The translations under genes and the position numbers were made by a program. From the NCBI GenBank assembly GCA_019058445.1, contig JAHPZA010000003.1, positions 32,001 through 96,000 of the forward strand: a DNA stretch of 64,000 nucleotides. The letters are read 5' to 3'. The stretch comes from Promethearchaeota archaeon. GTDB lineage: Archaea; Asgardarchaeota; Lokiarchaeia; Sigyniarchaeales; SOKP01. This document shows, piece after piece, positions 44,016 to 61,162 of the stretch (positions within the stretch are counted from its first letter, which is position 1; every line of letters starts with the position of its first letter). The notes under the pieces are model-generated. The model was not told the origin of the DNA. It made no database searches and saw only the letters and a program-made list of their open reading frames with translations.

Positions 44016-44792
44016 ATGGTGAAAAAAGAAGTGGCAATAGATTACGAACAAGCAGTTAAAGATTTAAAAACGGAATCTGATATAAAGTCTGTAGCGGTTA
44101 TTGAAGGAAAATACAAAATCGTATATTCAACGGAAGATTGGGATATAAGTGGAGATATTAAGAAGCTTGTTGGAATTTGGGACTCAATGCATGGAAAGTC
44201 TTTAACGGTTTCTGAAAATAAATATTCAATCCTTCAAGCTACGCCGGAAAGATTAGTGGCAACTTCAATTAAAGGAAAAGGGCATATTTTGGGAGCTAAG
44301 GATGATGAAAGAAAGGTTATCGTTTATGCAAAACCAAAAGGGAATATGCTGACTGCTTATACTGCTGCTGCCAGAGCATTAGAAGCAATGAGCTCGAAAG
44401 AGCCTTATATGGATGAAAAGACAGAATTAGGAAATGTAGAAAAATTTCCTTCGGAATGGGATACTCCAAGATTAAGAGAAGAAATGATGAAAGGTCTCAT
44501 AGAGTTCTTTACAAAAGGCGGAAAACTTGAAAGAGTTGATGAGACTGATTTAAAGCGCAGAGAAAAAGAAAGAGGACAGAGAATGGAAGAATTAAGTAAA
44601 GTATTACATGCATTAGAAATAACCAAGGAAGAAAAAGATAAACTGGTAAGTATCACAATAAAATCGAAATTTGTTACTGATTACATCTATGATGATTTCC
44701 AACTGTTAAGAGTGAAACATAAAATTGAGAAACTCATTGAGAAAGAGTTTCAAGTGCATGATATTGAGACGAGAATTGTGAAAAAAATATAA
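44016..44792 (+). CDS. Asgard profilin-like protein with a ~130-aa C-terminal extension
   Basis: Residues ~8-125 (SVAVIEG..IVYSTEDWDISGDI...SLTV...KYSILQATPERLVATSIKGKGHILG...IVY) match the pattern I recall for Lokiarchaeal profilins (TxxWD, KY, TxER, GKGHI). Confidence 0.72.
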   Translation: MVKKEVAIDYEQAVKDLKTESDIKSVAVIEGKYKIVYSTEDWDISGDIKKLVGIWDSMHGKSLTVSENKYSILQATPERLVATSIKGKGHILGAKDDERKVIVYAKPKGNMLTAYTAAARALEAMSSKEPYMDEKTELGNVEKFPSEWDTPRLREEMMKGLIEFFTKGGKLERVDETDLKRREKERGQRMEELSKVLHALEITKEEKDKLVSITIKSKFVTDYIYDDFQLLRVKHKIEKLIEKEFQVHDIETRIVKKI

Positions 44793-44834: not shown

Positions 44835-46268
44835 CTATTTTATTTTTTTAAGATTAGCAAAGTCTACAATATGTTTCGGTATTCTATAACTTGGACTTTT
44901 AATTTGAGCGGCACCACTTTCAATAGCTAATCTTGGCATGCCATACAAAATACATGTTTCTTGGGATTCGGCAATTGTTTTTCCTCCGATTCGTTTAATT
45001 GCCTCTAATCCATCGACACCATCCTCTCCCATACCGGTCAGTAAAATTCCCAAGGTTTTTTTTCGAAAGACTTTACAAGCAGAAAAGAATAACACGTCAA
45101 TTGAGGGAATACAATAATGCACTGGGTCACCTGAAAATATGTGGATACAAGGCTTATTATTTTTAACAAAAATTGACATGTGTCTGCCACCTGGTGCAAA
45201 ATAGACAATTCCTGGTTGAAGATACTCTCCTTCAATGCCTACCTTAATATGAATGGGACAAGTCTCATTTAAACTGCTAATGAAAGAATGAATAAATGGA
45301 TCGCTTAAATGTTGGACTACTAAAATTGGACATGAGATATTAGGAGGAATCTCCTTTAATACGGTTTTTAATGTTCGTGGACCGCCTACACTCGCTCCAA
45401 TAACAATTACATTAGATCCTAAATGAACCCCTTTTAATGGGGTTAGATCGGTTCTTTCTAATACTTTATTTCTTTTTATTTCTTTCTTTAAAATAGATTT
45501 TGATTTATGCGTTAAAGGATGAATTGCGTTTTCTGGTTTTTTGACTGAAATTTTTATCGAATGCTTTGCTTTTTCAGCTTTTGTTTCTTTAACTTCTTTT
45601 TGTTTGATTGATTCTTTAATTCCTTCCTTTTGTATCGACTTTTGCGCCTCAACTTTCTTAGTTTTTGGCTTTATTTTAACTTCTGTTGTTTCATTGGATT
45701 TTTTCACGCTGGTCAAGTCTAATTTATTGGTCTCCTCTGTTTCTAGTATAGGTTTTAATTCATTTATGTATTTACCAAATTTAAAAATCTCACTCACTAG
45801 CTCTTGTCGAATATAGGTCTTTTTAATTATGCTATTTTCTTTTTCAAATATTCTTTTAATTTGGGACTTCGAGGCTAGAAGAACTTTAGCAAGCAGTTCT
45901 TCTTTAAACCTTGGTAAATTTTTTGCTCCTAATCCTCCCGGTTTAATTACATAATCAAAGGCTCCCATTAATAACGCTTGGATTGAAGTATCCATAGTTT
46001 GAGGATTAACTGCTGATAAGATAATTGTCGGAGTAGGATTATAGTCCATTATTTTTTTAAAGGCATCAAGACCGTTCATTTCGGGCATAATTAAATCAAG
46101 GATTAATACATCTGGATGATGTTTTTTTACTAAATTTATTGCCTCTACTCCATTTTTTGCATAATCAGCAATTTTAATTGTTTCATCAATTGAAAGAATA
46201 TTTGTAATCGATTTTCTTAAAAACTCTGAATCATCAGCGATTATAACGCTTATTGTCTCACTACTCAT
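44835..46268 (-). CDS. cheB: Chemotaxis methylesterase CheB (REC + long Lys-rich linker + esterase)
   Basis: REC domain ADDS..LDLIMP..KP; esterase triad GASVGGP, VQHL, TGMGEDG; YGMP. Confidence 0.93.
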   Translation of the reverse strand: MSSETISVIIADDSEFLRKSITNILSIDETIKIADYAKNGVEAINLVKKHHPDVLILDLIMPEMNGLDAFKKIMDYNPTPTIILSAVNPQTMDTSIQALLMGAFDYVIKPGGLGAKNLPRFKEELLAKVLLASKSQIKRIFEKENSIIKKTYIRQELVSEIFKFGKYINELKPILETEETNKLDLTSVKKSNETTEVKIKPKTKKVEAQKSIQKEGIKESIKQKEVKETKAEKAKHSIKISVKKPENAIHPLTHKSKSILKKEIKRNKVLERTDLTPLKGVHLGSNVIVIGASVGGPRTLKTVLKEIPPNISCPILVVQHLSDPFIHSFISSLNETCPIHIKVGIEGEYLQPGIVYFAPGGRHMSIFVKNNKPCIHIFSGDPVHYCIPSIDVLFFSACKVFRKKTLGILLTGMGEDGVDGLEAIKRIGGKTIAESQETCILYGMPRLAIESGAAQIKSPSYRIPKHIVDFANLKKIK

Positions 46269-46333: not shown

Positions 46334-47299
46334 TTATATCCCTAAATTTGATGTTAAACACATAAAAAGTTCATCTAAACCCTCTCCTGTCAAAGCGGAA
46401 GTTTCAAAAAATTGAAAGTTATATCGGTCAGCAAATTTGTAGGCATTGCTTCTGATTTCTTCTCTATTCTCTACTTTATCAATTTTATTCCCTACAATTA
46501 TGTAAAGGATCGAAGAATTTTTGATGAAATGGCGGGCTTCTTCAATCCACTCGTTAATCATTCCTAATGTTTCTTGTTTAGAATAATCGAATACAATTAG
46601 AACTGCCTTTGAGTGGTTATAGAAATGCCTACGTATCTTTGCAAAACTTTTTTTGCCTCCTAAGTCAAACAGTGAAAATGTTATTTTCATATCTTTCAAA
46701 ATTTGAAGTTCTTTTTCAATTATTGAAAGACCTATAGTAGGTTTATATTGCTCAATAAATTCACCATTAACAAACATGTTTGCTATGGCACTTTTGCCCA
46801 CATTATCTGGTCCAATTAGTACAATCTTATTTATTGAATTTTTACTATTAGAATGGTTGTTGGATTCTAGTTCTACGTTTCCGCCATTAACAAGATTAGG
46901 AAGTTTCGTCGAAATTTTTCGATCATTTAGAATTTGTGATGCTTTTTCTGCCACAATGTATGAATACGGGATAAATTTGTCAATATCAGAGTAAGCATCT
47001 GCTACTAATACAAATAATGCTCTAGTTGGTCCAACATTTCCCAGTTCTAAATAGAACAAACGATAGTCATTAGTATCAAATGTACCACTGCCATAAGATG
47101 TATCGGCGAATCTTTTAATTTTATTAAGAGCCCCTTCAAGGATGCTCATAATCGCTCCAATAATCTCTTCATTAAAATTTTTTACTGATTGGCGAGCAAT
47201 AATTAATCCATCCAAATCTACAATTAACGTAGCAATTAATTCATCAACTTTTTTCAAAAAATTGGCTAACAATTCTTCTAATAGCGTGACGCGCAACAT
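46334..47299 (-). CDS. Roadblock (MglB-like) domain fused to a Rab-like small GTPase, inside the che cluster
   Basis: N-terminal LIATLIVDLDGLIIA...IIGAIMS. GTPase motifs GPDNVGKS, YKPTIG, FDLGGK, NKID, ETSA. Confidence 0.85.
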   Translation of the reverse strand: MLRVTLLEELLANFLKKVDELIATLIVDLDGLIIARQSVKNFNEEIIGAIMSILEGALNKIKRFADTSYGSGTFDTNDYRLFYLELGNVGPTRALFVLVADAYSDIDKFIPYSYIVAEKASQILNDRKISTKLPNLVNGGNVELESNNHSNSKNSINKIVLIGPDNVGKSAIANMFVNGEFIEQYKPTIGLSIIEKELQILKDMKITFSLFDLGGKKSFAKIRRHFYNHSKAVLIVFDYSKQETLGMINEWIEEARHFIKNSSILYIIVGNKIDKVENREEIRSNAYKFADRYNFQFFETSALTGEGLDELFMCLTSNLGI

Positions 47300-47428: not shown

Positions 47429-48610
47429 TTAAGCTCTAGAAAATTTTGACGCATATCTTACTATATAATCCTTAATGTGGTAATTTGGACTTATTATTTC
47501 GGCAAAACCATATTTGGCTGCAAATTTTGGCATTCCGTAGAGAATAGCTGTTTCTTCAGATTCTGCAATTGTAACCCCTCCCGATTTTTGAATTGCCCCC
47601 AATCCTTGAACTCCATCCTTACCCATTCCAGTTAACAAAATACCTAAAGTATTTTTATTGAATGCTTTTGCTGCCGAATAGAATAACACATCAATAGAAG
47701 GTTTACAAAAATTAACCGGTTCCCCATTAAAGATTCTGATTGTTGGAGATCTTAAGTTCCTATTTTTTACCATAATTTCCATGTGTTTGTCCCCTGGAGC
47801 AATATAAATATATCCAGATTTAATTATTTCACCATTATTTGGAATTTTTACTTTTAACTTGCACAAATCATTCATTGATTCAGCAAATTGATTCATAAAA
47901 AAGAGATTTAGATGTTGTACAATGAATATAGATCCTGGAAAATTTGAGGGAATTCCCTTCAAGATTGATTTTAAGGTTTTGGGACCACCTACACTGGATC
48001 CCATGACTATGATGCATGGTACCTCAGATCCACTCTTAACTTGCGGGATTTTAGATGCTTTTTCTTGAACAACTACTTTTAAATCATGATGATTTGTGAT
48101 TTTAATAGGGACTATTTTCTCTGAATTTAATTTTTTCTCTAAAATTTCTTTTTTAACCTTAATTTCTGAAGCTAAAAGCACTTTATTTATTAACTGCGTT
48201 TTAAATTTAGGAAATTCCTCTTTCCATACTCCAGTAGGTTTAATAATATAATCAAAAGCTCCCAATAGGAGGGTTTGAATCGAATCATTTAATGTTTTTG
48301 ACGCTTCAGAGGGATTGAGAGCAGAAAAAACGATTGTTGGCACGGGATAATGCTTTGAAAGATATCGATATAACGTAATTCCATCCATTTTAGGCATAAT
48401 TAGATCTAAAAGCAAAACATCTGGATTTGTTTTTTCAATTTTTTCGATGGCTTCTTCTCCATTTCTTGCGATATCAACTACTTCGATTTGAGGGTGTTCC
48501 GAAAGCATATCTGATAATATTTTTCTCTGATAAGAAGAGTCTTCTGCTATGAGGACTTTGACCTTCTTATGTGAACTATCCTCAGTTTTCATGTTCTTGA
48601 GAGCACTCAT
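47429..48610 (-). CDS. cheB: Chemotaxis methylesterase CheB (second copy)
   Basis: REC domain AEDS..LDLIMP..KP; GSSVGGP, VQHL, TGMGKDG; YGMP. Confidence 0.93.
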   Translation of the reverse strand: MSALKNMKTEDSSHKKVKVLIAEDSSYQRKILSDMLSEHPQIEVVDIARNGEEAIEKIEKTNPDVLLLDLIMPKMDGITLYRYLSKHYPVPTIVFSALNPSEASKTLNDSIQTLLLGAFDYIIKPTGVWKEEFPKFKTQLINKVLLASEIKVKKEILEKKLNSEKIVPIKITNHHDLKVVVQEKASKIPQVKSGSEVPCIIVMGSSVGGPKTLKSILKGIPSNFPGSIFIVQHLNLFFMNQFAESMNDLCKLKVKIPNNGEIIKSGYIYIAPGDKHMEIMVKNRNLRSPTIRIFNGEPVNFCKPSIDVLFYSAAKAFNKNTLGILLTGMGKDGVQGLGAIQKSGGVTIAESEETAILYGMPKFAAKYGFAEIISPNYHIKDYIVRYASKFSRA

Positions 48611-48677: not shown

Positions 48678-49067
48678 CTAGGCTTTGGCCATAGTGTGCC
48701 TTGTTAGAATTTGTTCCACTTGGTCCTTCTTGAAGGGTTTACGAATAAAATCCTTTGCGCCTAGTTGAGTCGCTTCAAGTATTAAATCCTGTTGGCCAAT
48801 TGCAGACACTACAATAATTGATGCTGTTTTATCAAAGTTTAGAATACCTTTAATGGCATCTAGTCCTCCTAGCTGTGGCATGATAAGATCCATAGTAACC
48901 AAATCTGGCTTTAATTTTTTATATAGTTCAATTGCTTCATTTCCATTTTTCGCTTCTGCAATGACTTCAGCAAAATTAGTGCCGTTTATAATGTTCTTAA
49001 GCATGGCTCTAGTGAATCCAGCATCATCAACAATTAATACCTTTTTTTTGTGATTCTCTTTAGACAT
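48678..49067 (-). CDS. cheY: Chemotaxis response regulator CheY
   Basis: Single REC domain: IVDDAGFTR, VTMDLIMP, VSAIGQ, FIRKPF. Confidence 0.92.
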   Translation of the reverse strand: MSKENHKKKVLIVDDAGFTRAMLKNIINGTNFAEVIAEAKNGNEAIELYKKLKPDLVTMDLIMPQLGGLDAIKGILNFDKTASIIVVSAIGQQDLILEATQLGAKDFIRKPFKKDQVEQILTRHTMAKA

Positions 49068-49159
49068 GTTAACATTCCCCTAATTTTTCATAAAATTTAT
49101 GATAGGTTAATTTGAAAAATTTTCGTACTTTTTGTGAGTTTAACTAAGACGTACTTTTA

Positions 49160-49256
49160 TATAATTTTGATAAAGTAAGTATTTAAAAAATTAATGAAAT
49201 GCAAAATAGTTGCCCAGAATAACACAAAAAATTTGAAAAAAATTTGATTTAAATAT
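49160..49256 (-). promoter_or_regulatory. Duplicated promoter, copy 1 (upstream of cheY-cheB-GTPase-cheB)
   Basis: 34-bp exact match TTGATAAAGTAAGTATTTAAAAAATTAATGAAAT (49167-49200) to 61019-61052, with similarity over ~100 bp. Contains a minus-strand TATA box TTTAAATA. Confidence 0.8.
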
Positions 49257-49313
49257 TAATTCTATTTTGGATTTTGAGAGTTTAAGATCAGTAATCTTAT
49301 CTAAATTACTTAT

Positions 49314-49964
49314 CTATTTAATTTTAAGAAGGTCAAATATTATTTTAATAGTATCTATACTTGGAATAAAACAAATTATCCCATCTATACTTAATTCTTC
49401 AATTTTTATATTTGTGTTAATTATTATTATAGAATCTGTGAGCTCTGAATAATTTGCAGCCACTGAATTACATATTGCGCCAATTGAATCTAAAGCTAAA
49501 ACAGGAACATTAGGAATTAGTTTGATGCCCATTAAATTTGCTAATGAGCTTGCATAATGTCCCGCTAATATATTGCCGATTTCAGAAATGATACTCCTCG
49601 TCAAATCATCTAATTCCTCGATTTCGTGTATATCATCAATAGATATCTCAGAAATCGAATTGATCATGTTAATCATGGATTCTTTAGTAAAGATTTGTAG
49701 TACAGTTAAGTTATGCTTTCCTGTTATATTTGAACAAATTCCAAAGATATTAGTTTCTTGATCGGGAAAAATATTATTTAACTCCCAAAAAGGAATGATT
49801 TTAATGCCAGTTAAAGAAACTTCAACTCGCTTATTAACAAGTTCTGATAACGCAACAACAGCATTACCGGACCCAATATTTCCTAATTCTTTTAACGAAT
49901 CTAACTGCTCAGGACTCAATTTTATTGAGTTATTTACCCCTTCAAGACCTTCATTTAATTTCAT
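49314..49964 (-). CDS. cheC: CheY-P phosphatase CheC
   Basis: Two active-site motifs, DSLKELGNIGSGNA and SIISEIGNILAGHY. Confidence 0.92.
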   Translation of the reverse strand: MKLNEGLEGVNNSIKLSPEQLDSLKELGNIGSGNAVVALSELVNKRVEVSLTGIKIIPFWELNNIFPDQETNIFGICSNITGKHNLTVLQIFTKESMINMINSISEISIDDIHEIEELDDLTRSIISEIGNILAGHYASSLANLMGIKLIPNVPVLALDSIGAICNSVAANYSELTDSIIIINTNIKIEELSIDGIICFIPSIDTIKIIFDLLKIK

Positions 49965-49984
49965 ATTCTTTAAACCTCTAAATT

Positions 49985-50530
49985 TTAATTAATTTTTTTA
50001 GTAATTGTATCTTTGCTTGTTTTTATTTGGATTATATCATCGCCTATATTATATATGATTGTTCTCCCTTTTTTTCCTCCAACTTCCTCAAATAGAATTT
50101 TAATATTTAATGAGCTTAATACTTCTCTTGCGATTTTAATATTTTGCTTACCGATACAGTTAAATTCATTATCAAAAATAGTTGCACCTCCAATCATAAC
50201 TGCTTTTAAATTCTTTAATTTTGCTCCGCTCTGTATCATTTTGTCCACTAAATCTTTTATAGAAGTATTTACAAATTTATGAGGTAATTTTATCTGGGAA
50301 GCTTCTTTATTTTCAGAGGTCGGAAGTAAGACATGGGACATAGCATGTATATGATTTATCGAATCTGTTAACAGAATTGCGATACATGAGCCCAATCCAT
50401 ATATAGAAATCGTTTTGTAGTTTTTATATTTCTTACTCGAGTTTACTAATGCATAATGTGCGATGGGTAAAAAAATCTCTCCGTTTTGATTAGGTTTGAT
50501 TATGCGATCAATTCGTTCTTCATAAACCAT
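49985..50530 (-). CDS. cheD: Chemoreceptor glutamine deamidase CheD
   Basis: GLGSCIAI, SHVLLP, KF, MIGGA, IGKQN, EEVGGKKGRTI. Confidence 0.92.
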   Translation of the reverse strand: MVYEERIDRIIKPNQNGEIFLPIAHYALVNSSKKYKNYKTISIYGLGSCIAILLTDSINHIHAMSHVLLPTSENKEASQIKLPHKFVNTSIKDLVDKMIQSGAKLKNLKAVMIGGATIFDNEFNCIGKQNIKIAREVLSSLNIKILFEEVGGKKGRTIIYNIGDDIIQIKTSKDTITKKIN

Positions 50531-50544
50531 AATGAATTAACTTT

Positions 50545-51444
50545 TTAACTTTTAATATAAAAATGATTCCTTCCATCAAGTAACTTGAGATTGAGATTGG
50601 AATTTAAAAGAGTTTCAGTTTTTCCAAGGACCAATAATCCGCCATTCGTTAATTTATCTTTTAAAATCTTTAATAGTTTCTCTCTAAAACCTCTATTTAT
50701 ATATATCAATAAATATCTACAAAAAATAACATCATACTTTTGAGATCTTTGATGTCCCTTTGTGACATCCTCTATGATAAAATCTACTTTTTTTTTAATA
50801 TCATTGCAAATTAAATATTTGGGTCCTAATCGATCATGAAATTTAGTAAAATATGCTAATTTATATCTCTCAGGAGTTTCTTTTAAAGCCTCTTCACTAT
50901 AGAATCCCATTCGTGCCATTTTAATAATATTACTATCAACATCAGAAGCAACTAGATCATAGGTAGGAAAATCATTGATTTCTTCCCTTAATTGCTCAAG
51001 CATCATAGCTAGAGAATAAGGTTCCTCGCCTGAGGCACATGCACATGACCAAATTTTCAACCCCTCCTCTTTATAAGCATAATCTCTGCGAATTTTGTCA
51101 TAAATAGAAAGCTTAGAGACATCAATATTATCAGAATAATTTTGAAATTTTCCATTTTTACAAGCAAGAATAATCTGACGAAGTTTTTCATAAATTTCGA
51201 TGTTTCTAAAGAAATAAGTATAATTTATAGTAAACCTGTCCAAAAACAATTCAATTTCTTGGGGATTTGATGAAATATAATCAAGATAACTTTGGTCGGT
51301 TGTCAAACCGACTCGAATCATTCGAGCTTTAATCCTTCTTTCAAGAAAATTCCTTCGATAACATTCAAACTCTATACCGGTTGAATCTTTCAATTTTTCT
51401 ATCAAATTGTTGATGGATTTAGGGTTAAATGCTATACTTTCCAT
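50545..51444 (-). CDS. cheR: Chemotaxis methyltransferase CheR
   Basis: RRIKARM, TINYTYFFRN, IWSCACASGEEPYSLAM, ASDVD, DVIFCRYLLIY, LGKTE. Confidence 0.94.
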   Translation of the reverse strand: MESIAFNPKSINNLIEKLKDSTGIEFECYRRNFLERRIKARMIRVGLTTDQSYLDYISSNPQEIELFLDRFTINYTYFFRNIEIYEKLRQIILACKNGKFQNYSDNIDVSKLSIYDKIRRDYAYKEEGLKIWSCACASGEEPYSLAMMLEQLREEINDFPTYDLVASDVDSNIIKMARMGFYSEEALKETPERYKLAYFTKFHDRLGPKYLICNDIKKKVDFIIEDVTKGHQRSQKYDVIFCRYLLIYINRGFREKLLKILKDKLTNGGLLVLGKTETLLNSNLNLKLLDGRNHFYIKS

Positions 51445-51467
51445 TGAATTCTCTTCCTTTAAGAATT

Positions 51468-52037
51468 TTAAAGATTTTTCAATAACTCCTCGAGTTGGCT
51501 AATCCTTTTATCTATATGTTGAATTGAATATTTCACATGAGAATGAATTTCTTTAATTTCATTTACGATATGTGAAATTTTAATATGAACACTTCTGTTT
51601 ATTTGGGGTTTTAAAGTGCTCATAGCTTTTGATTGTTGAACTTGAAGTAATTGAGAACCTAAATTATTTGAAGCGGTTGTTTTTGCGATCTGAGCTGAGT
51701 TGTTTTTTTGTCTAGATTCGCCAGGAAAACCATATCTTTCAGGACCTCTCTTGATTTCGCTTGATATATATTGAAATTCAATAGGTTCTCTTCCCTCTTT
51801 TATAACCTCATATTTAAAACCATTAAATTCTTTATTATTTTTGAGTTTGCCTGCCCAATTTGCGGCAATATATCTATGAAATAAACGAGATTGTAACCCT
51901 GCCCAAATCCAAATTAAATTTAATGGTTTATCTACAAACAAATATACACTATTAGTTTCAAAGAGCTTATCGGGATTTTTTGTGAGATTTTCACCGTTGA
52001 TTTTATATACATAATTAAAGTATTCGTTTTGTTGCAT
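51468..52037 (-). CDS. Gelsolin-like domain protein with a C-terminal coiled coil, inside the che operon
   Basis: FETNSVYLFVD...LIWIWAG..S....RYIA...A..L.......YEVIKEGREPIEF matches the gelsolin/villin repeat consensus. A Q/S/N-rich linker and the heptad tail IDKRISQLEELLKNL follow. Confidence 0.75.
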   Translation of the reverse strand: MQQNEYFNYVYKINGENLTKNPDKLFETNSVYLFVDKPLNLIWIWAGLQSRLFHRYIAANWAGKLKNNKEFNGFKYEVIKEGREPIEFQYISSEIKRGPERYGFPGESRQKNNSAQIAKTTASNNLGSQLLQVQQSKAMSTLKPQINRSVHIKISHIVNEIKEIHSHVKYSIQHIDKRISQLEELLKNL

Positions 52038-52114
52038 ATCCCTTAGCCATTTTGATATTTTTTGTAAAAATTTGGATTATGTGGGAATTAAAAAAATATT
52101 CCCCATGTTTTTTT

Positions 52115-54025
52115 TTAAACTTCGTAAAATGTGGAGAGTGTATCTAATAATTCTTGTAAAGTCTCGAGTTCTGGAATAAAGAGAAAAGTGCCCTGAATCT
52201 CAAATTCTTTAATAATAACATTTGTAGTGATTACTAAAGAAAGTTCTTTCATCAATCCAATTTCTTCATTTAGGATTTTAAACAATTTCATGCCGGTATC
52301 TAAACTTATGTCCGGCGGCTCAGTCATCAATCTTATACTTAATAAATTCCCTAAAGCTGTAGTATAATGACTGGCTAATATATGACCGAGTTCTTTCATT
52401 GCATCAATATAAATTTCAGGAAAATCATTGATAGATTTCACGCTTCTTAAATCTATTTTTGCTTTTCCGTTATCACCTATTATGATAGAAGTCAAATTAG
52501 TGATGTCTGGTACTTTAAATAAAGTTAGAACTGTTGCTCTGGTTTTTCCTTGAACTCCACTCCAGGAGACAAATAATTTCATATTTTTCTTGCTCATTTT
52601 TTTGGCAAACTGATCAATAGAAACGACCTCTACTGAGGGAATATTGATATCTACTCGCTTATTTATCATTTTTGCTAAGGCGTTAGCAGCATTACCAGCA
52701 CCAATGTTTCCAACTTCTCTTAAAGCATCTTTCTGAATATCTGTAAGTTCTAAGTCAATGAATTTATCGAGCGCTCCTCCCGGTTTAACAGGTTCAACCT
52801 TATCATAGATATCTAATTTATTGAATAGACTTTTTATAGCTTTTAAGTCTGGTATATAGAAAAAGATACCATTCATCTGTAAATCAGTAACTTTAATTGC
52901 TGTTTTTATAATTACCACATATTCAGATTGCTCTTGAAGCTCTTTAGCTAAGAAATTTCCTAAATTGCCCGCATTGCTCATAGCAAATTCAGGAACATCA
53001 AAAATCATTTTTGTATTTAATAAATCTGCTAATGCTGAAGCATAATGTCCCGCGAGAATATTTCCAAATTCCGTGACTGTAGAAATAGCAAAATCATCTA
53101 AATCTTTTTTAGTTTTTACTTTATCCGGATTAATCTTTGACTTTTTGCCCGCTAGATCTGCTATTAATTTCATTAATGGAGTTAATTCAAACACTTGAAG
53201 TATTGTAGATAATGAAGGCTTTCTTATATGCGAAAATATTCCACAGACAACTTCTGACTCATTACCAAATTGACGAGGTAACTGTTCTAGAGAAATAATA
53301 CCAACATCCGTAAGATCTACATCTATTCGTTTATTTATTAATCTTGAAAGAGCTGTGACTGCATTTCCACTTCCAATGTTCCCTACCTCCTGTAGTGTAT
53401 CTTTTTGCATTTTGGTAAGCTTCACTATATCGTGAACTATCGGCTGATGTGGTTTATCACTTGAAGGGATTATAATATCTTCAGTTCTTATTCTAGCAGG
53501 AAGCTTTTCTGGGATATAACGCTCTGGTAATTGATTGATATCTTGAGAATTTCTCATTAATTGTTGATCAGGAGCTAATGGAACTATTAATGACTCAAGA
53601 TCTAAAACAACATATGTTTCCTCATCTAAGACTCCTACAGATCTAATGTATTTCATATCAATTTCAGTCTTGATAATCGCAGATTTATTCTGAAAAATTG
53701 AAATTGGGACTTCTCTCATGCTAATAACTGAATCCACATAGAGTGCAATATTAATATCCTGTAATTCTAATAAAACTAAGCGAGTATTTTTTGATAACTT
53801 TAAATGATCTCCATTTGAGTGAATCCTTTGTCCCATGGCTATTATTGTATAAATCTCCCCTCTAACATCAGCAATTCCCACAATTGATCTTTCTGCTAAA
53901 GGGATTGGAATAATTAATTCTGGAACATAAATTTCTCTTACATCTGTTATTTCAAGAAAATATATTCGATCATCTACATTAATTTCTACTAATTTTATTG
54001 TTTGTACATATTCGTTTTCTAACAT
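52115..54025 (-). CDS. CheW-CheC-CheC fusion protein
   Basis: N-terminal CheW (VREI..P..IIPIP....IVGIADVRGEI, ALYVDSV, VVLDL), then two CheC domains (DTLQEVGNIGSGNA / TEFGNILAGHY and DALREVGNIGAGNA / KELGHILASHY). Confidence 0.88.
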   Translation of the reverse strand: MLENEYVQTIKLVEINVDDRIYFLEITDVREIYVPELIIPIPLAERSIVGIADVRGEIYTIIAMGQRIHSNGDHLKLSKNTRLVLLELQDINIALYVDSVISMREVPISIFQNKSAIIKTEIDMKYIRSVGVLDEETYVVLDLESLIVPLAPDQQLMRNSQDINQLPERYIPEKLPARIRTEDIIIPSSDKPHQPIVHDIVKLTKMQKDTLQEVGNIGSGNAVTALSRLINKRIDVDLTDVGIISLEQLPRQFGNESEVVCGIFSHIRKPSLSTILQVFELTPLMKLIADLAGKKSKINPDKVKTKKDLDDFAISTVTEFGNILAGHYASALADLLNTKMIFDVPEFAMSNAGNLGNFLAKELQEQSEYVVIIKTAIKVTDLQMNGIFFYIPDLKAIKSLFNKLDIYDKVEPVKPGGALDKFIDLELTDIQKDALREVGNIGAGNAANALAKMINKRVDINIPSVEVVSIDQFAKKMSKKNMKLFVSWSGVQGKTRATVLTLFKVPDITNLTSIIIGDNGKAKIDLRSVKSINDFPEIYIDAMKELGHILASHYTTALGNLLSIRLMTEPPDISLDTGMKLFKILNEEIGLMKELSLVITTNVIIKEFEIQGTFLFIPELETLQELLDTLSTFYEV

Positions 54026-54050
54026 AGTAAATACTCTACCTCTTTAATTT

Positions 54051-54887
54051 TCAAATGTCATTTTTAATGATAATTCCTTTCCAAATGAGTTCTTTTTCCC
54101 TTTCTTCTTTAGAATGTTCAGAAAAAAAATCGGGTTGTTTAAATATTGAAATTTGACCCCCATTCGAGAATTCATACACATAATCTAGCATATCATCCAT
54201 ACTTGTGAAGTTAAAGCCTGCTATGCTCAATTCGGAATTGTTAACTATTAATAAATCCTCACTATTGAATAGGGTATATTCATCGTTAATTTCTAACCAT
54301 AATTCAGGAATTATCTCTTTTTTATCAATTGTAATTATATCATCCAGGGGTATATCCCGATACGTTTTATTTGTAGCAAAAATTATCTGGTCTGGAATAG
54401 TTTTAAGGAGTTTAGCAGTTTTATTAATCCCCTCTATTGCTTGAGTATATTTTTGTGAATCGAAGACATCATAGCACAAAACAAAAATAACTCCGCCTCC
54501 ATCTAATTTAGCTATTAAATCTACCACGTTTTCTGCATCTGAAGTTGGATTAATTTGTATATTCTCTACAAAAATATCACGAATATACTTAAAATATTGA
54601 TAAAATCTCCATTTCACTGCAGATTTATCATTTATCTCTCGACTAATGAAAGTCTGATAGAGATTTTGTAACTGCTTCTCTGATAGTTTTGAATAATCAG
54701 CGCTCGTGTCATAGTCATCCCCAATATTAACAAATTCATTTGATTTATTTGATTTTGATTTTTTCGCAACTTCATCTACATAAATCTTAAGTTCCTCTAT
54801 AGTAAATCCAGGCGCAATATATTCTACTAAATAAAGCAATCTCTTTTTGGATTTATCCTGTAATAAATCATAATATTGTATTGTCAT
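54051..54887 (-). CDS. Hypothetical cytoplasmic protein in the che operon
   Basis: 278-aa ORF with a GGAG ribosome-binding site and 25-31 bp gaps to its neighbours. No family recognised. Confidence 0.7.
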   Translation of the reverse strand: MTIQYYDLLQDKSKKRLLYLVEYIAPGFTIEELKIYVDEVAKKSKSNKSNEFVNIGDDYDTSADYSKLSEKQLQNLYQTFISREINDKSAVKWRFYQYFKYIRDIFVENIQINPTSDAENVVDLIAKLDGGGVIFVLCYDVFDSQKYTQAIEGINKTAKLLKTIPDQIIFATNKTYRDIPLDDIITIDKKEIIPELWLEINDEYTLFNSEDLLIVNNSELSIAGFNFTSMDDMLDYVYEFSNGGQISIFKQPDFFSEHSKEEREKELIWKGIIIKNDI

Positions 54888-54918
54888 TTTTTTTCTCCTT
54901 TATTTATTTAATATACAT

Positions 54919-56940
54919 TTAACCAAAGAAATATGATTCTAAATCAGAAATACTCATTTTTTCTTCTCCTTTATTTTTCAGATAGTACATAATTTCTTTT
55001 TCTTGATATGCTAACACATTTTTAATAGAGAATGAGATTATATACTCATTTTCTTCTTTAGATTTTGAAACTTTATTTTCGGTATTTGAAGATACTAATT
55101 CAAAGGTATCTGGTATTGTGTCTGTTATTAATACATCCTTTATTTCCACATTCGAATTATTTCTCATTGTAATACTTATCGCAAATTCATCTGCATCACG
55201 TCCAGGAAAGATTTCTTTTCCAATTGTCAGATTACGACGCTTATGTGTGACCTTTATCTTAGGTTTTTTCATGTCTGATAAGATATTTTTCACTACATAA
55301 TATTCAGGTATTTCGATTTCTGCCAGATTCTTGTTTTTTATATAATAACAGCTGACTTCTAACGGAAATTCATATGCTTTATTATAATCTGGAGTCATTG
55401 CCCGAATTGGATATGTCAGTTCTAATTGTCCATTTATCCCTATTAAATCCCTTATTTGATTATTCGTTAAATTTATAATTAATTCTAAAGCATGTTCCTT
55501 AGATGGATCATCATCTTGAGGTGTAATTTTGAGGGTAATATCATCTATTTTCATGTCTCCTGAAGAGTTTTTAAGCTTAATTTGTGCAAGATCAATAGGA
55601 GGCTTAAAATCTTCTGGAATTGTCTCATTAATTATAATACCTTTAATAGGAACAATGCCCGTATTATGAATAATAATTTTATTAAATAATTCTGATTCTT
55701 CAAATGACTTGATTTCTTTTTGAGAGATATCTTTTTCAAAATAAAATCCTATCACTTCAATTGTTGTATCTTCCACTTGTAAGCTTACATTAGTGTTTCT
55801 CTCAATAGCATAATCCAATGAATAAGTTAGCTTTCTTGAAAATTTAGGTTCATTCTCCTCATGAAGTTCCCATTTATTAGTATTAAATGTTTCACCAGGT
55901 CGTAAAATAACTTTATTTCCTTCCTTAGTCATATCTAAATCTACATATTTTGTAGATCTCGTTTTATCGGTAATTAAAACGTTTTTCAATTGCATAGTAA
56001 AATCACTATGATTCGCAAAGATAAATGAGCATTCCCATTGATTTGGTTCTGTTTCTTTCTCTTCCACATCTATGACATGCTTTGCGTGGGAATATGCTGA
56101 GAATTCTTTAATATCAGTTTCTGAGACAATATAATTTTCTAATTCATATGTCATAGTAATAATCCCCGTCCTAATCTGCTTATTTTTTTCTGGAATTATT
56201 TTAGCTATAATAATTACCTGTCTCTGTTCTCCAGGTTTTAATTCTCCTAAATTCCAAGATAATTTATTGTTTTTAATTTTTATATCTGCTTTCGAGTCGC
56301 TTGAACATTCTAAATCATAAAAATCCTTAGGAATTTCTTTTTCAGCATGAATATTTTTAATGATATAATTTGATTGATTATGTAAATCAATTAAAAATTT
56401 AACTGTATTTTCTTGACCAAATAACAAAATATATCGATCATCTTGACCAATCATAGGAATTTCTGTAAAATCCTTTACTGCTTTTATATCCTTATTAAGA
56501 ATCTCTATTGATTCATAAATCTTAAGAGGATCTGATAGATCATCTAAACTACTAATGTTGTATCTAATATTCTTATTAGTTTGTGGTTCAAATATCCCAA
56601 GACTCAACTCATTTTGAATATCTAAATTGGTATATTGAGAGCCTAAGATTTGAATGCGAGTATCCCACATTCGATCTTTATATGAATTATTTATTATTGA
56701 TACATTGCCATAGCCATTAGCAGATTTTCTTTGCATAGTATGATCATACTGAAATTCTAAAGTTTCCTCATTAACTATTGTAATTTCAGATATACTTTCT
56801 GCTGTTTTTGAAATTTGAACCTCATTTGTTTCATATTTTCCTAAGTGCTTTGTTTCTTCCATAAATTTGAGAGGTACTCCCAAAAAATTTGGACCGATTT
56901 TGGTCCTTAATTCAGTTTGATTAATGCATTTAAATCCCAT
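54919..56940 (-). CDS. Multi-beta-sandwich (DUF11/Ig-like repeat) protein with no signal peptide or TM helix
   Basis: Recurring motifs: IDLHNQSNYIIKNIHAEKEIP..F, IIIHNTGIVPIKGIIINETIP..F, ITMRNNSNVEIKDVLITDTIP..F, and SWNLGELKPGE. Confidence 0.65.
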   Translation of the reverse strand: MGFKCINQTELRTKIGPNFLGVPLKFMEETKHLGKYETNEVQISKTAESISEITIVNEETLEFQYDHTMQRKSANGYGNVSIINNSYKDRMWDTRIQILGSQYTNLDIQNELSLGIFEPQTNKNIRYNISSLDDLSDPLKIYESIEILNKDIKAVKDFTEIPMIGQDDRYILLFGQENTVKFLIDLHNQSNYIIKNIHAEKEIPKDFYDLECSSDSKADIKIKNNKLSWNLGELKPGEQRQVIIIAKIIPEKNKQIRTGIITMTYELENYIVSETDIKEFSAYSHAKHVIDVEEKETEPNQWECSFIFANHSDFTMQLKNVLITDKTRSTKYVDLDMTKEGNKVILRPGETFNTNKWELHEENEPKFSRKLTYSLDYAIERNTNVSLQVEDTTIEVIGFYFEKDISQKEIKSFEESELFNKIIIHNTGIVPIKGIIINETIPEDFKPPIDLAQIKLKNSSGDMKIDDITLKITPQDDDPSKEHALELIINLTNNQIRDLIGINGQLELTYPIRAMTPDYNKAYEFPLEVSCYYIKNKNLAEIEIPEYYVVKNILSDMKKPKIKVTHKRRNLTIGKEIFPGRDADEFAISITMRNNSNVEIKDVLITDTIPDTFELVSSNTENKVSKSKEENEYIISFSIKNVLAYQEKEIMYYLKNKGEEKMSISDLESYFFG

Positions 56941-56998
56941 GTTTATTTTGCTCCATTTGATTTATCTTTTATTTTTTATTACATATTTTTGACTAATT

Positions 56999-59089
56999 TT
57001 AATAAATATCATTTAATTGTGAGTATTGCAATTCGTTTAATTTAGAGTTTATAATATTAAAAACATCAAGTATTAAACAAATAGAACCGTCGCTCAGGAT
57101 TGTTGAGCCTGAAATATAGTTGGTAATAGAATATTCTGATTGAAATGGTTTCACCACCGCATCAATTTGTTCAAGAAGCTCATCTGCAATTAATATTGCT
57201 GATGAATTCTCATCTTTCTGACATAAAACTGCCAATTTAGTGTGTGAATTTTTCTTTACTTTACCATTACTATTTAGTTTCAAAAGTTTATCCAATTTAA
57301 TTATGGGTAGAAGACTTGAGTTGATTTTATAATATTTTGACTCTCCAACATACTCCAGAGAATCGGGACTATAAAAATAAATTTGTTTTATGTTTTCCGT
57401 AGGAATCGCGAAGATATCACCTGCGATTTTTAATAATTGTGCCTTAATAATTGCCCTACTAAAGGGTACAATTACTGAGAATTTCGTTCCGATTCCTTTT
57501 TCTGTGAAAATTTGAAAAGAACCTCCAAGTTTTTTAACCTTTTCATCAACAATAGCTAAACCCATTCCTCGTCCAGAGATCATATCTGCATCCGTAAGGG
57601 TTGAAAAGCCAGGCATCAAAAGAAATTTATTCAAAACTTCATTTGAAAGAAGTTCTACCTCGTTGGGAGTGTAATATCCCTTAGCAATGATATTTTCTCT
57701 TATTTTATCATAATTAATCCCTTTTCCATCATCAGAGATTTCAATATAGATTAATCCTGCTCTTCGATATGTCTTTAGTTTTAAGACTCCTGTTTCATTC
57801 TTATTTTTAGAAATCCTTTCTTTTGGTGATTCAATTCCATGATAAATTGCATTTCTAAGAAGATGGACTAATGGTGAATTAAGTTCTTCTAAAATTTTTC
57901 TGTCCATCTCCACATTAATGCCTTCTAGGATGAATTTTATTTTTTTACCTGTTTCTACCGCAACATCACGTACCAATCTTTTATATTTCCTAAAAGTTGA
58001 TTCTACTCTGACAAGTTTTAAGTCAAAAATGATTTCTTGAATATCAAGGAGGGATTTATCAATATTATCAAAAAGGATACTTATCTCCTGATCTTGTCTC
58101 TCCTTGAGTATTTGACTAATTTGATTTTTAATTATGATTAATTCTCCAAAGTAATCCATTAATTTTTCCAATGTATCAATATCAACTTTTATTCTTGAAA
58201 TTGTCGCTCTTTCATTCTGGAAATTGTCTATTATCTTAGACACCGGTTCAATTTCTCCATCAATGATTTCTTCTTCGTAAGTGTTTTCTTTTTCACTTTC
58301 CAGGCTACTTTCAAATGTGTTCTCATCCTGCATCTTTATACTAAAGTTAGTCAGAAGAGCTTCAAATTTGTCATGATTTAACTCTGTTATAACTTTATTA
58401 TCAATTTCAAGGATTTCTTCCAAAATTTGAGAAATTTGGGCTGAATTTTTTTGAGTAATATAGTAAATTTCAAAATCTCTATCAAAATTTCCAATTTCTA
58501 ATAATCGAGGTTCAGGATTACTATAACAAATTTGACCAACTTCATTGAGCGCTCTAAAAATAATAAATAAGCGTACTTTTTTAAATACACAAGTGGCCTG
58601 TAATCTGAGATATATCTTATAATATTTATTATTTTTAACGCTTAGTGTTTGTTTAATTTTATCCTGAGGAATTGGTTTAATAAAGGTAATTTCATATTCA
58701 TTCTCGAAATCATCAAAGGTATCTTTAATTTCGTCTAAAAATTTAACATCAATATCAGTATTATCCCCTTTTTTAAGTCTGCTCACTACTGTTCGAAGAA
58801 CATCAAGACTTTCAAAAAAGATTGAAGTAAATTTACTGATTTTTTCGGTTGAAACTTTATTATCTTTAGCCTTGTTCAAAAAATCTTCTAAAAAATGGCA
58901 GAATTTTGAAACGTTTTCAAAACCTGCCATGGCAGTCAATCCTTTTAAAGTATGGAATGCGAAAAAAAGTTCTTGAACTGGTTTTTTATTGCGAGGATTT
59001 TCTTCTAGCTTGAGAACTTCATCTTCTACTTTTTGGATAAGATCTTCGGATTCATTTATAAAAAGCTGAATATCTTCTTTAGATGCCAT
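56999..59089 (-). CDS. cheA: Chemotaxis histidine kinase CheA
   Basis: Hpt FHTLKG, a P2 domain, dimerization IKVDIDTLEKLMDYFGELII, HATPase HLLRNA.HGIE / DDGKGI / PGFST / SGRGMGL, and a C-terminal CheW-like P5. Confidence 0.95.
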   Translation of the reverse strand: MASKEDIQLFINESEDLIQKVEDEVLKLEENPRNKKPVQELFFAFHTLKGLTAMAGFENVSKFCHFLEDFLNKAKDNKVSTEKISKFTSIFFESLDVLRTVVSRLKKGDNTDIDVKFLDEIKDTFDDFENEYEITFIKPIPQDKIKQTLSVKNNKYYKIYLRLQATCVFKKVRLFIIFRALNEVGQICYSNPEPRLLEIGNFDRDFEIYYITQKNSAQISQILEEILEIDNKVITELNHDKFEALLTNFSIKMQDENTFESSLESEKENTYEEEIIDGEIEPVSKIIDNFQNERATISRIKVDIDTLEKLMDYFGELIIIKNQISQILKERQDQEISILFDNIDKSLLDIQEIIFDLKLVRVESTFRKYKRLVRDVAVETGKKIKFILEGINVEMDRKILEELNSPLVHLLRNAIYHGIESPKERISKNKNETGVLKLKTYRRAGLIYIEISDDGKGINYDKIRENIIAKGYYTPNEVELLSNEVLNKFLLMPGFSTLTDADMISGRGMGLAIVDEKVKKLGGSFQIFTEKGIGTKFSVIVPFSRAIIKAQLLKIAGDIFAIPTENIKQIYFYSPDSLEYVGESKYYKINSSLLPIIKLDKLLKLNSNGKVKKNSHTKLAVLCQKDENSSAILIADELLEQIDAVVKPFQSEYSITNYISGSTILSDGSICLILDVFNIINSKLNELQYSQLNDIY

Positions 59090-59121
59090 ATAATCCCCTT
59101 TATCATTCTTTTTCCATATAT

Positions 59122-59511
59122 TTATTTCTTATCTTTAATTTTTAGAATACGCTCCATAACTTCTACAATCTGTTCAGTTTTGAAAGGCTTTTGAATAAAA
59201 TCTTTAGCTCCTTTTTTTGCCGCTTCAAGTACTAAAGCTTCTTGACCTAAAGCAGATACAACCACGATGATCGCCTTTGGATCAACCTTTAAAAGATCTT
59301 CAATAGTTTCAATGCCTCCCTTTTCAGGCATTACAAGATCCATCGTGACCATATCTGGTTTTAATTTTTTGTATAGGGCAATCGCTTCTTTTCCATTTTT
59401 CGCTTCACCGACGACTTCACCGTAATTAGTTTTTGAAATTATATTCTTCAGAATATTTCGTGTAAATTGGGCGTCATCAACTACCAATATTTTACTTTTA
59501 TTATTTGACAT
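59122..59511 (-). CDS. cheY: Chemotaxis response regulator CheY
   Basis: VVDDAQFTR, VTMDLVMP, VSALGQ, FIQKPF. Confidence 0.92.
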   Translation of the reverse strand: MSNNKSKILVVDDAQFTRNILKNIISKTNYGEVVGEAKNGKEAIALYKKLKPDMVTMDLVMPEKGGIETIEDLLKVDPKAIIVVVSALGQEALVLEAAKKGAKDFIQKPFKTEQIVEVMERILKIKDKK

Positions 59512-59538
59512 TTTTCTAACTCCTATTTTTGGTTAATA

Positions 59539-60063
59539 TTATTTTGTTATTGTTTGTTCTTTTTCTATAATGGTTTGTTCTACTTCAGTTAATATTCTAC
59601 TCAAATCGAGTAAAATTCTAGGTCTATCTTTAAACTTTATAATTCCTTTGATATATTCAATTCCAACACTAGTTTGGAATATTGGACTTAAACCTTCAAC
59701 TAAATCAATATCAATATTGGCTATATCCAAAATACGATCAACTAAAAATCCTGTGTTCACATTATTAACACTAACAATGATGATGTATTTTTTCTCTGAA
59801 CTATATTTTTCTTCATTTTTCTTAGAATCTTGTATTCTATATTCGTTCAGATTTAATTTCTTGCTCAAATTTACAATATGTATAATTTCTCCTCTGTAAT
59901 TATAAATTCCATCAATAAAATCATAACTTTGAGGCAATTTTCTAATTTGGCCTGCCAATATTATTTCTTTAGTATCATAAATATTAATAGCAAATTGTTC
60001 GCCTTCTGTTTCAAATAAAATAACTGAAAGCTTATTTCCTTGAGTATAATATTCTTCTTGCAT
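59539..60063 (-). CDS. cheW: Chemotaxis coupling protein CheW
   Basis: FAINI..TKEII, LPQSYDFIDGIYNYRGEII, GFLVDRI, YIKGI, ILLDL. Confidence 0.9.
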   Translation of the reverse strand: MQEEYYTQGNKLSVILFETEGEQFAINIYDTKEIILAGQIRKLPQSYDFIDGIYNYRGEIIHIVNLSKKLNLNEYRIQDSKKNEEKYSSEKKYIIIVSVNNVNTGFLVDRILDIANIDIDLVEGLSPIFQTSVGIEYIKGIIKFKDRPRILLDLSRILTEVEQTIIEKEQTITK

Positions 60064-60121: not shown

Positions 60122-60949
60122 TTACAAATTAAAATATCTGTTAATATTTTTCTCAAATTCGTAAAATGCCGTAATATCTCCATTAAAATTTTCAAGATGG
60201 GTTTTATATTTCTCCAGAAATTCATCAGCCATAAGATACATATATCTTTTAATAAGCGGAGTTATCTTTTCAACTAAGAAAGCAAAAATTACATTTTTCT
60301 TAGTAATCGTGTAAAATAGCTGATTTCCGAAATTTATCTCTTTTAATTTCCCCCCTGTCTCTTTACCGATGACAAATTGTGAAAATGAAAAAAGTGCTGA
60401 AATAAAACCTCCTATTTGAACTTCTCCATCAATAATGTCAGTCCGTTTTCCCATAATTTTTGTAAAAAGTGGACATCCAGCAGTATCAATAATAAAAATA
60501 CCAATTATTCCCTCTATTACAGGTATTTCGATTGAGTTTTTAATAGTATTCTTAATCTCATCGATAGTATGATTATCAGTACAATATTTAATAATACTCT
60601 TAGAGTGTAAATATAATTCAGAATATTGGAGAGTACTTTCTTTTTCATAAAGATAAATTAGAATTAGTTTCTCTAACTCTTTTTTATTCTTGAAAAAGTT
60701 AAGAAATACAGAGAAATCATCTAAAGGAATAATGGAATTTCCACTATCTTTTTTGATTATTTCCATCTTGAAAAGATGTAATATATTTTGTATCATGGGC
60801 ATTCCAATACCAATTTGGTAAAGTACTTCAGAACTAAAATCTTCTGACTCAATGTTTTTGAAAGTAATTTTGATCAAACCAATGCCTAGCACTTCCAACA
60901 TTCTTGGATTATTAACACGTCTGTCCATGCTTATCATCGAGACTACCAA
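60122..60949 (-). CDS. Longin-domain protein, first gene of the che operon
   Basis: The C-terminal half has a longin pattern (GIFIIDTAGCPLF...IGGFISALFSFSQFV...LKEINFGN...IFAFLV...EFLEKY...FNGDITAF..F). The exact start is uncertain. Confidence 0.72.
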   Translation of the reverse strand: MVVSMISMDRRVNNPRMLEVLGIGLIKITFKNIESEDFSSEVLYQIGIGMPMIQNILHLFKMEIIKKDSGNSIIPLDDFSVFLNFFKNKKELEKLILIYLYEKESTLQYSELYLHSKSIIKYCTDNHTIDEIKNTIKNSIEIPVIEGIIGIFIIDTAGCPLFTKIMGKRTDIIDGEVQIGGFISALFSFSQFVIGKETGGKLKEINFGNQLFYTITKKNVIFAFLVEKITPLIKRYMYLMADEFLEKYKTHLENFNGDITAFYEFEKNINRYFNL

Positions 60950-61011
60950 ATTAGCTTTCTATAAATATATCCCCTAAATATACAATAATTCATTTATTGA
61001 TACTTATATTT

Positions 61012-61108
61012 TATAATCTTGATAAAGTAAGTATTTAAAAAATTAATGAAATACAAAATATTACGCTTTAACGATACAAAAAACTCTGAAAAAAAATAAT
61101 TTAAATAT
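61012..61108 (-). promoter_or_regulatory. Duplicated promoter, copy 2 (upstream of longin-cheW-cheY-cheA...cheC)
   Basis: Exact 34-bp match (61019-61052) to 49167-49200; minus-strand TTTAAATA. Confidence 0.8.
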
Positions 61109-61162
61109 AAAACGTTTTCAATAGGATTTTAAAAATTTGAGAGACACGACAAAATAATGATT

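Follow-up and report, generated by a model that had tools for sequence, protein, structure and literature searches.

A Roadblock–Rab-like GTPase without the catalytic glutamine as a conserved accessory member, and candidate GTP switch, of a Lokiarchaeial che gene cluster

Fusions of a Roadblock domain to a small GTPase ('RB-GTPases') have been catalogued, without an assigned function, in the Asgard archaeon Prometheoarchaeum MK-D1 (Tran et al. 2024, PMC10933270); the term chemotaxis has zero occurrences in that paper, and MK-D1 was reported to be without che genes (PMC9834061). In Myxococcus, the Frz chemosensory system reverses cell polarity via MglA and MglB, acting through a response regulator (PMC3441718). 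G and Roadblock domains are also found in one chain in the Rag/Gtr proteins and in a Lokiarchaeal RagA-like protein (PDB 8yl2). Here, we describe a gene that resembles each of these systems in part. It lies on the minus strand of a 64,000-nucleotide stretch (the whole of which is called the window below) of contig JAHPZA010000003.1 of a Promethearchaeota archaeon of the Lokiarchaeia (assembly GCA_019058445.1), and it encodes a Roadblock domain followed by a Rab-like G domain that lacks the catalytic Gln. Judged by gene order across the phylum, its clade belongs to the che cluster as a conserved but accessory component, and we give about an even chance to the view that the protein serves the Lokiarchaeial Che pathway as an accessory GTP switch with slow hydrolysis, probably towards a non-archaellar output. 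A literature search of incomplete coverage returned no paper on a GTPase gene within a che operon of Asgard archaea. The gene and its parts are the following (dN/dS, ratio of nonsynonymous to synonymous substitutions; pLDDT, predicted local distance difference test; VIA, an exhaustive structural comparison).

46334..47299, minus strand: Roadblock–Rab-like GTPase gene (P0001), stop codon included; open reading frame (ORF) of 321 amino acids (aa), dN/dS 0.09
46928..47299, minus strand: MglB-type Roadblock/LC7 domain, residues 1–124 (Pfam PF03259, AlphaFold2 topology, Foldseek)
46844..46927, minus strand: interdomain linker, residues 125–152, variable, with a low-confidence core (pLDDT, alignment)
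46337..46843, minus strand: Rab-like G domain, residues 153–321 (Pfam Ras, PDB sequence match, Foldseek, VIA)
46790..46813, minus strand: P-loop GPDNVGKS, residues 163–170, with Asp165 at the position of Ras Gly12 (alignment)
46652..46666, minus strand: G3 motif and start of switch II, DLGGK, residues 212–216, with Lys216 at the position of Ras Gln61
46478..46489, minus strand: G4 motif NKID, residues 271–274, for guanine specificity (N in 114 of 115 relatives, K and D in 115 of 115)

The gene itself is real, as its relatives and its substitution pattern indicate. Compared with the ortholog of the same genus, dN was 0.068 and dS 0.77, and the resulting ratio of 0.09 points to strong purifying selection. 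A search of 5.8 billion proteins retrieved relatives in more than 120 clusters (50–91% identity, ~318 aa), all from Asgard archaea, and 115 relatives were taken into the alignment and census. Gln was found in none of the 115 at the position equivalent to Ras Gln61, which was occupied by Leu (78), Ile (20), Ser (7), Phe (3), Lys (2), Val (2), Ala (2), and Thr (1). The Gly12-equivalent position was acidic in 96 of the 115 (Glu in 79 and Asp in 17). G163, G168, K169, T188, G215, K272, D274, and S301 were invariant (115/115), and D212 and N271 were each conserved in 114.

The first-pass annotation, made from the letters of the window, had correctly read the G3 motif as DLGGK and had named conservation of the exchange of Gln for Lys in che-linked orthologs as a check; the census did not show such conservation. 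Lys216 (codon AAA at 46652–46654) was restricted to this protein and a 91%-identical one from another sample; because the latter also reads DLGGKKS, the residue is no assembly slip. On the alignment, Lys216 is real but lineage-specific, and the event at this position was probably a change from Leu or Ile to Lys on a background already without Gln. The Gln appears to have been lost at the origin of the clade; its substitution is the family trait, and Lys is the exception. The same annotation had suggested a phylogeny among Asgard small GTPases; in a maximum-likelihood tree of G domains, all Gln-less proteins fell into one clade (support 100/100, stem branch 0.93), apart from the eight other Roadblock-GTPases of this genome and from its plain Rab-like proteins. 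The other four GTPases of the window all have DxxGQ, as was noted at first sight (DLAGQ, DFGGQ, DFGGQ, and DIAGQ). Among the 55 Ras-like ORFs of the genome, G3 was DxxGQ in 31 and DxxGE in 14, and one other large protein had DTGGL. The 14 ORFs form a group with DFAGE or DFGGE, in which Glu replaces the catalytic Gln, and several of them stand in tandem on contig C10 at ~589–592 kb. The window also holds a second Roadblock-GTPase fusion (10790–12322, minus strand; 510 aa) with DLAGQ and an unassigned C-terminal extension of ~190 aa.

The motif set of the Ras superfamily (GxxxxGK[ST], switch I Thr, DxxG, NKxD, and SA) was complete in the protein, with G1 as GPDNVGKS, switch I as ..YKPT including T188, G3 as DLGGK, G4 as NKID, and G5 as ETSA. 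The residues for GTP and Mg binding and for gamma-phosphate sensing were thereby retained (GK[ST], Thr188, Asp212, Gly215, NKxD, and SA), and both Ras-type catalytic hallmarks were absent (Lys216 for Gln61 and Asp165 for Gly12). Rap (Thr61), the HAS-GTPases (Era, FeoB, and MnmE), and DnaJC27/Rbj (DMAGH) have a residue other than Gln at the catalytic position with nucleotide binding intact. By analogy, a substituted Gln61 with intact nucleotide binding implies another catalytic route or slow turnover in the present clade. The likeness to these GTPases is one of kind only, as the clade is not a member of their families and the residue here is Lys, not a hydrophobic one; the NCBIfam models for Era, Der, and others stayed far under their cut-offs on the protein.

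Domain assignments were obtained from profiles, structure models, and fold comparisons. Pfam Ras matched residues 158–317 (E 1.7e-35, 122.4 bits) and TIGR00231 (small_GTP) scored 82.7 bits. Pfam Robl_LC7 (PF03259) matched residues 9–63 only (E 5.4e-5), and its 23.3 bits against a cut-off of 23 are marginal when taken alone; the same precomputed match was present on many orthologs. A profile of the N-domain compared with PDB sequences returned only CvnB5 (3leq, E 0.41), and the assignment was settled by fold comparison. A two-domain AlphaFold2 model built on the 115 relatives (pLDDT 87.7, predicted TM score (pTM) 0.87) consisted of an a-b-b-a-b-b-b-a domain (residues 1–124), a linker of partly low confidence, and a G domain of classical form (residues 153–319). 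Within the linker, the 10 residues 141–150 had a mean pLDDT of 61, with 147–149 below 50, and its columns were poorly conserved in the alignment. The same a-b-b-a-b-b-b-a topology was obtained when residues 1–130 were modelled alone (pLDDT 83.7). In Foldseek, the best PDB structures for the N-domain were MglB of Thermus and Myxococcus (3t12 among the matches), followed by Roadblock proteins of MK-D1 and a Thorarchaeon and then by LAMTOR subunits and Rag C-terminal domains; all of the top 50 belonged to MglB, Asgard Roadblock proteins, LAMTOR, or the Rag C-terminal domain (TM 0.58–0.77, E 6e-7 to 4e-5), and the best of them had TM 0.65–0.77 at E about 1e-6. As modelled, the N-domain is a Roadblock domain, structurally MglB-like, and this assignment holds because its fold matches solved MglB and Roadblock proteins. 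The roadblock-like N-domain of the first-pass annotation was thus confirmed by both the Pfam match and the fold, and the architecture of a Roadblock domain joined to a small GTPase is real. In the full-length fold searches (Foldseek and VIA), only the G domain was aligned, and no solved chain covered both domains.

In both sequence and fold, the G domain resembles the Rabs, but without prenylation and without the catalytic Gln. Its best PDB sequence match was Ypt51 (E 6.8e-25), and Rab39B, Rab30, Rab22, Rab5, and a Thorarchaeal Rab followed; DnaJC27/Rbj (PDB 6jmg) ranked third. Rabs also led the Foldseek matches (TMt 0.82–0.90), and in VIA, Rab3C, Rab9A, Rab32, and Rab28 reached Z 24–25, compared with 18.8 for the Lokiarchaeal RagA-like protein, 18.5 for RagD, and 17.6 for MglA of M. 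xanthus, which came below Rab, Ras, Rho, and Rag. The profile Gtr1_RagA scored 26.9 bits on the G domain versus 122.4 for Ras. The protein ends in ...TSNLGI; a C-terminal Cys motif for geranylgeranylation was sought in the protein and its orthologs and none was found, the tails of the orthologs being likewise free of Cys.

These results place the protein among the described systems. It shares with the MK-D1 RB-GTPases a Roadblock domain N-terminal to a small GTPase and an Asgard origin; compared with the Gln-bearing RB-GTPases of its own genome, the present clade is separate, has neither Gln61 nor Gly12, and sits within a che cluster. With MglA/MglB and Frz of Myxococcus xanthus (PMC3441718; PDB 3t12 and 6h5b), it has in common a Che-like pathway, a Ras-superfamily GTPase, and a Roadblock protein, whereas here GTPase and Roadblock are a single chain encoded inside a che operon, with a presumed coupling to the Che proteins. 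In contrast to MglA, the G domain is Rab-like; its G3 Asp is retained, and the catalytic Gln through which MglB acts is missing. As in the Rag/Gtr proteins, the G and Roadblock domains are in one chain, and Roadblock-mediated dimerisation is likely, but the domain order is reversed. To the Rabs (Rab5/Ypt51, Rab11, Rab8, and the Thorarchaeota Rab PDB 7ezb), it is closest in both sequence and fold, with G1, G4, and G5 of the Ras/Rab type, and it differs from them in having no catalytic Gln, no Gly at Ras position 12, no C-terminal prenylation Cys, and an added N-terminal Roadblock domain. Of the single-chain MglB/MglA-like or Rag-like switch suggested earlier, the architecture and the MglB-like Roadblock stood, and the kinship of the G domain did not: membership of the MglA family was rejected on the missing Gln and the lower Z, and that of the Rag/Gtr family on the Roadblock preceding the G domain, the Gtr1_RagA profile not being the best, and the Z of 18.5–18.8.

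The linkage of the GTPase to che genes was followed in 400 genomes of the phylum by examining up to 20 kb around each match and mapping the cluster proteins of the window onto these neighbourhoods. At E ≤ 1e-60, matches were obtained in 41 of the 400 genomes, almost all belonging to one family, and ~33 of the 41 matches were true orthologs from eight other genera and from the genus of this genome; a related-locus search of genome contigs yielded two true orthologs among 20 loci. All of the ~33 ortholog loci were inside or beside che genes; a lack of such linkage, which the first pass had named as refuting its reading, was thus not observed. The usual order was the 275-aa first gene, CheW, CheY, CheA, a DUF11 repeat protein, a 278-aa gene, CheW/CheC/CheC, a 189-aa gelsolin gene, (CheR), CheB1, CheD, CheC, the GTPase, and CheB2. 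The present genome and its congener had the end of this series rearranged to CheR-CheD-CheC and CheY-CheB1-GTPase-CheB2. The most conserved adjacency was that of the GTPase and CheB2, with 21 complete pairs separated by 70–74 bp in 17. This pair stood alone in three genera (L053, L054, and L066), where no further che gene was present within 10 kb. One genus had four loci in which the GTPase came immediately after the 189-aa gelsolin gene, the long CheB being ~19 kb away. Taken over all loci, gene order marks the GTPase clade as conserved in the che cluster but accessory to it. The lone pairs were located just 3' of A-type ATP synthase genes (B, D, and I subunits), and a longin-Roadblock-GTPase form was found upstream of the ATP synthase operon in another metagenome-assembled genome (L090); the proximity to ATP synthase genes may be ancestral synteny or coincidence.

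In the present genome, the gene lies between two cheB genes, as first described, and the cluster comprises the following features.

44835..46268, minus strand: CheB2, 477 aa, receiver, K/E-rich linker with a motif, and methylesterase; the conserved downstream partner of the GTPase
47429..48610, minus strand: CheB1, 393 aa, receiver and methylesterase (CheB_methylest, Pfam), directly upstream of the GTPase
48678..49067, minus strand: CheY-type receiver (Pfam), first gene of the sub-operon cheY-cheB1-GTPase-cheB2
49157..49259, no strand assigned: 103-nucleotide element upstream of the sub-operon (sequence repeat)
49314..60063, minus strand: remaining genes of the che unit, beginning at the downstream end, CheC, CheD, CheR, gelsolin-domain protein, CheW-CheC-CheC, 278-aa unannotated gene, DUF11-repeat protein, CheA, CheY, and CheW
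51468..52037, minus strand: divergent gelsolin-domain gene, 189 aa (hhalign)
60122..60949, minus strand: first gene of the cluster, 275 aa, with a longin-like C-terminal part, residues 179–271 (homology to N-terminal extensions of the GTPase)
61009..61111, no strand assigned: second copy of the 103-nucleotide element, upstream of the main che unit (80% identity)

The repeated 103-nucleotide element is a candidate shared promoter or operator. The linker of CheB2 (residues 154–169) carries an invariant motif, RQ-x6-F-x-FG-x-Y-x-N, which is not present in CheB1 and occurs once in the genome. It was found in all CheB2 orthologs, including those of clusters without the GTPase (L087–L089), and co-variation of the motif with the GTPase was rejected because the motif persists where the GTPase was lost. 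When the complex of full-length CheB2 with the GTPase, GTP, and Mg was predicted, the score was 0.00, with controls not run, and this result is neutral on binding. Pfam and NCBIfam searches with the 275-, 278-, and 189-aa cluster genes returned nothing significant. A search of sequencing runs matched sediment and soil DNA runs only, with no RNA run among the matches. On the opposite strand, a profilin-like gene of 258 aa (44016–44792, plus strand; Pfam Profilin E 0.0085) converges on cheB2, and three paralogs of it are located elsewhere in the genome.

Two further cluster genes were examined as possible partners. The 189-aa gene escaped the Pfam Gelsolin model even with the threshold relaxed to E ≤ 10, and none of its homologs has a Pfam match; the relation to gelsolin was detected only by profile–profile comparison with the genome's own gelsolins, in which the family profile matched Pfam-validated gelsolin domains (hhalign 96.2%, E 2.6e-9, 71 columns). 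On that comparison, the gene codes for one gelsolin domain of divergent sequence, followed by a helical tail at the C-terminus; nearly every relative's che cluster contained it. The 275-aa first gene was present in 10 of 10 relatives' clusters examined. Its residues 179–271 are related (E 1e-6) to a 172-aa ORF of the window (32841–33359, minus strand), a longin-like ORF that adjoins a 346-aa GTPase. Four members of the Gln-less clade (P0027, P0054, P0084, and P0107) have an N-terminal extension of ~150 aa that is 40% identical to this 172-aa ORF and 27–31% identical to the C-terminal part of the first gene (E 8e-8 for P0027). Signals for the longin fold were Pfam Longin at E 0.027 and 0.058 in relatives and atlas values of 0.82–0.89 to a cluster annotated as Fuz_longin/Roadblock, and the longin assignment of the first gene is accordingly weak. 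The occurrence of one domain as a separate che-cluster protein and, elsewhere, as a fusion with the GTPase is a classical hint that the two may be physical partners. Other long clade members (L081:9234-10535 and L086:9117-10421; 433–434 aa) have a C-terminal extension of ~125 aa and are located behind two small genes without annotation, at a distance from che genes.

Only one CheA is encoded in the genome, inside this cluster, together with ~15 loci for methyl-accepting chemotaxis proteins across the genome; extra CheR, CheD, and CheB genes are located elsewhere in it. No match to CheF or archaellin was obtained in the genome, in keeping with an output other than the classical one. CheB was found in 105 of the 400 genomes of the phylum, CheF in one, and archaellin in three; the positive controls of the CheF and archaellin searches gave matches. 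A cultured Lokiarchaeon has chemoreceptor arrays and a che gene set (PMC9834061), and Asgard cells crawl by Lokiactin-dependent protrusions that are regulated by gelsolins and profilins (PMC13716822).

The reading to which we give even odds, an accessory switch of the Che pathway, would work as follows. Intrinsic GTP hydrolysis would be slow, and GTPase-activating proteins (GAPs) of the Arg-finger/Gln type would have no effect. The protein would dimerise via its Roadblock platform, like MglB, LAMTOR, and Rag proteins, and its nucleotide state would be set by a partner, for which the longin-like first-gene product is the best candidate. The GTPase would then relay or gate the output of the single CheA to a target other than an archaellum, the likely one being the machinery of cell polarity or of actin-based protrusion, in parallel to the action of Frz on MglA/MglB in Myxococcus. 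The earlier suggestion of a switch controlled by the Che pathway stands as regards the conserved che-cluster context; the control itself is suggested by gene order, the shared upstream element, and the domain-fusion argument. The more specific wiring, in which the Lokiarchaeial chemoreceptor/CheA pathway would be connected via the Gln-less Roadblock-GTPase, the longin-like partner, and the gelsolin protein to actin protrusion and crawling, is tentative, and we regard it as somewhat unlikely.

Several points weigh against a Che switch with this output. Two otherwise identical clusters (L087 and L089) have lost the GTPase cleanly, and a third locus (L088:9650-9802; G206:C16) holds a decayed copy with codons 3–53 only between cheC and cheB2. 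Because otherwise identical clusters lost the gene, the pathway can work without it, and the GTPase is an accessory, dispensable component, not an indispensable core Che component. The long clade forms with an N- or C-terminal extension are not che-linked and occur also in genomes without che genes, and because they sit outside che loci, the basic activity of the clade would be independent of Che proteins. The direction of action (input, output, or adaptation) is read from gene order alone, and the most conserved neighbour is a methylesterase, which is an adaptation enzyme and not an output protein. The absence of CheF and archaellin from the genome was read from two Pfam models searched in six frames, at a genome completeness of 92.6%. 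The profilin-like gene was rejected as a part of the system, as it adjoins the cluster only within this genus. The cultured crawling species may be without this ortholog, and the report on crawling makes no mention of chemotaxis (PMC13716822).

The chief rival explanation takes up the neighbouring methylesterase: the GTPase would be a regulator of the adaptation branch that recruits, activates, or inhibits CheB2 according to its nucleotide state, tuning receptor demethylation instead of output and perhaps reporting the GTP/GDP or energy state. We consider this unlikely, although the GTPase–CheB2 pair is the top adjacency (21 complete pairs, 17 with the 70–74 bp gap) and persists alone in three genera, CheB2 is distinguished from CheB1 by its long linker with the invariant motif, and a sensor of nucleotide levels would suit a GTPase without catalytic residues. 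The linker motif is not tied to the GTPase, being kept in L087–L089 without it, the four loci with the GTPase after the gelsolin gene have their long CheB ~19 kb off, and co-transcription alone could explain the adjacency. The accessory nature of the gene, lost in some clusters, also fits a non-core role in which the GTPase, on its Roadblock dimer platform, would place or segregate the chemoreceptor array. A precedent for NTPases in che operons is provided by the ParA-like ATPases of bacteria (PpfA and ParC), which position arrays. Small GTPases are recruited to particular locations by platforms of the Roadblock and longin type (PMC10933270). Array positioning or assembly is nevertheless distinctly unlikely in our estimate, as the protein is not homologous to ParA-type systems, its sequence and the alignment showed neither a membrane anchor nor a prenylation signal, and the conserved gelsolin gene and the pairing with CheB2 would be left unexplained.

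The catalytic positions bear on the remaining explanations. Both canonical positions are substituted in every member, and the GTPase-deficient proteins Rnd and RhoH carry comparable substitutions, so that the protein could be a non-cycling pseudo-GTPase, bound constitutively to GTP or to no nucleotide and acting as a static scaffold without switching. Set against this, the gamma-phosphate sensors Thr188 and Gly215 are invariant in the 115 relatives and the guanine-specificity residues are invariant or nearly so, a degree of conservation to be expected of a protein that changes conformation with its bound nucleotide. Era, FeoB, and MnmE, which are hydrophobic at the Gln position, and Rap with Thr61 hydrolyse GTP by other means; we judge a pseudo-GTPase very unlikely. 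The least likely explanation, in our view, is a strict single-chain MglB/MglA module in which the fused Roadblock domain is an intramolecular GAP for its own G domain. MglB proteins are indeed the best structural matches of the N-domain, and the pTM of 0.87 of the two-domain model suggests a defined mutual arrangement. MglB, however, acts by repositioning MglA's own Gln and Arg, and because the G domain is without Gln (0/115 members), the canonical MglB mechanism cannot operate here; the G domain is also Rab-like (Z 24–25), not MglA-like (Z 17.6).

Asgard genomes encode dozens of small GTPases (55 in the present one) without an assigned cellular role, and the Gln-less clade is an exception in that it has a conserved pathway context, here the only CheA cluster of a genome in which no archaellum gene was detected. 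Chemical sensing in these archaea may therefore act through a small-GTPase switch and not through a flagellum-like motor. If the wiring to actin were true, it would be a prokaryotic forerunner of the path from receptor to small GTPase to actin in eukaryotic directed migration. The locus makes it testable what a chemosensory system controls in a crawling archaeon with actin-filled protrusions, how a Ras-like protein switches without Gln61 and Gly12, and whether Roadblock and longin platforms regulated signalling GTPases before eukaryotes.

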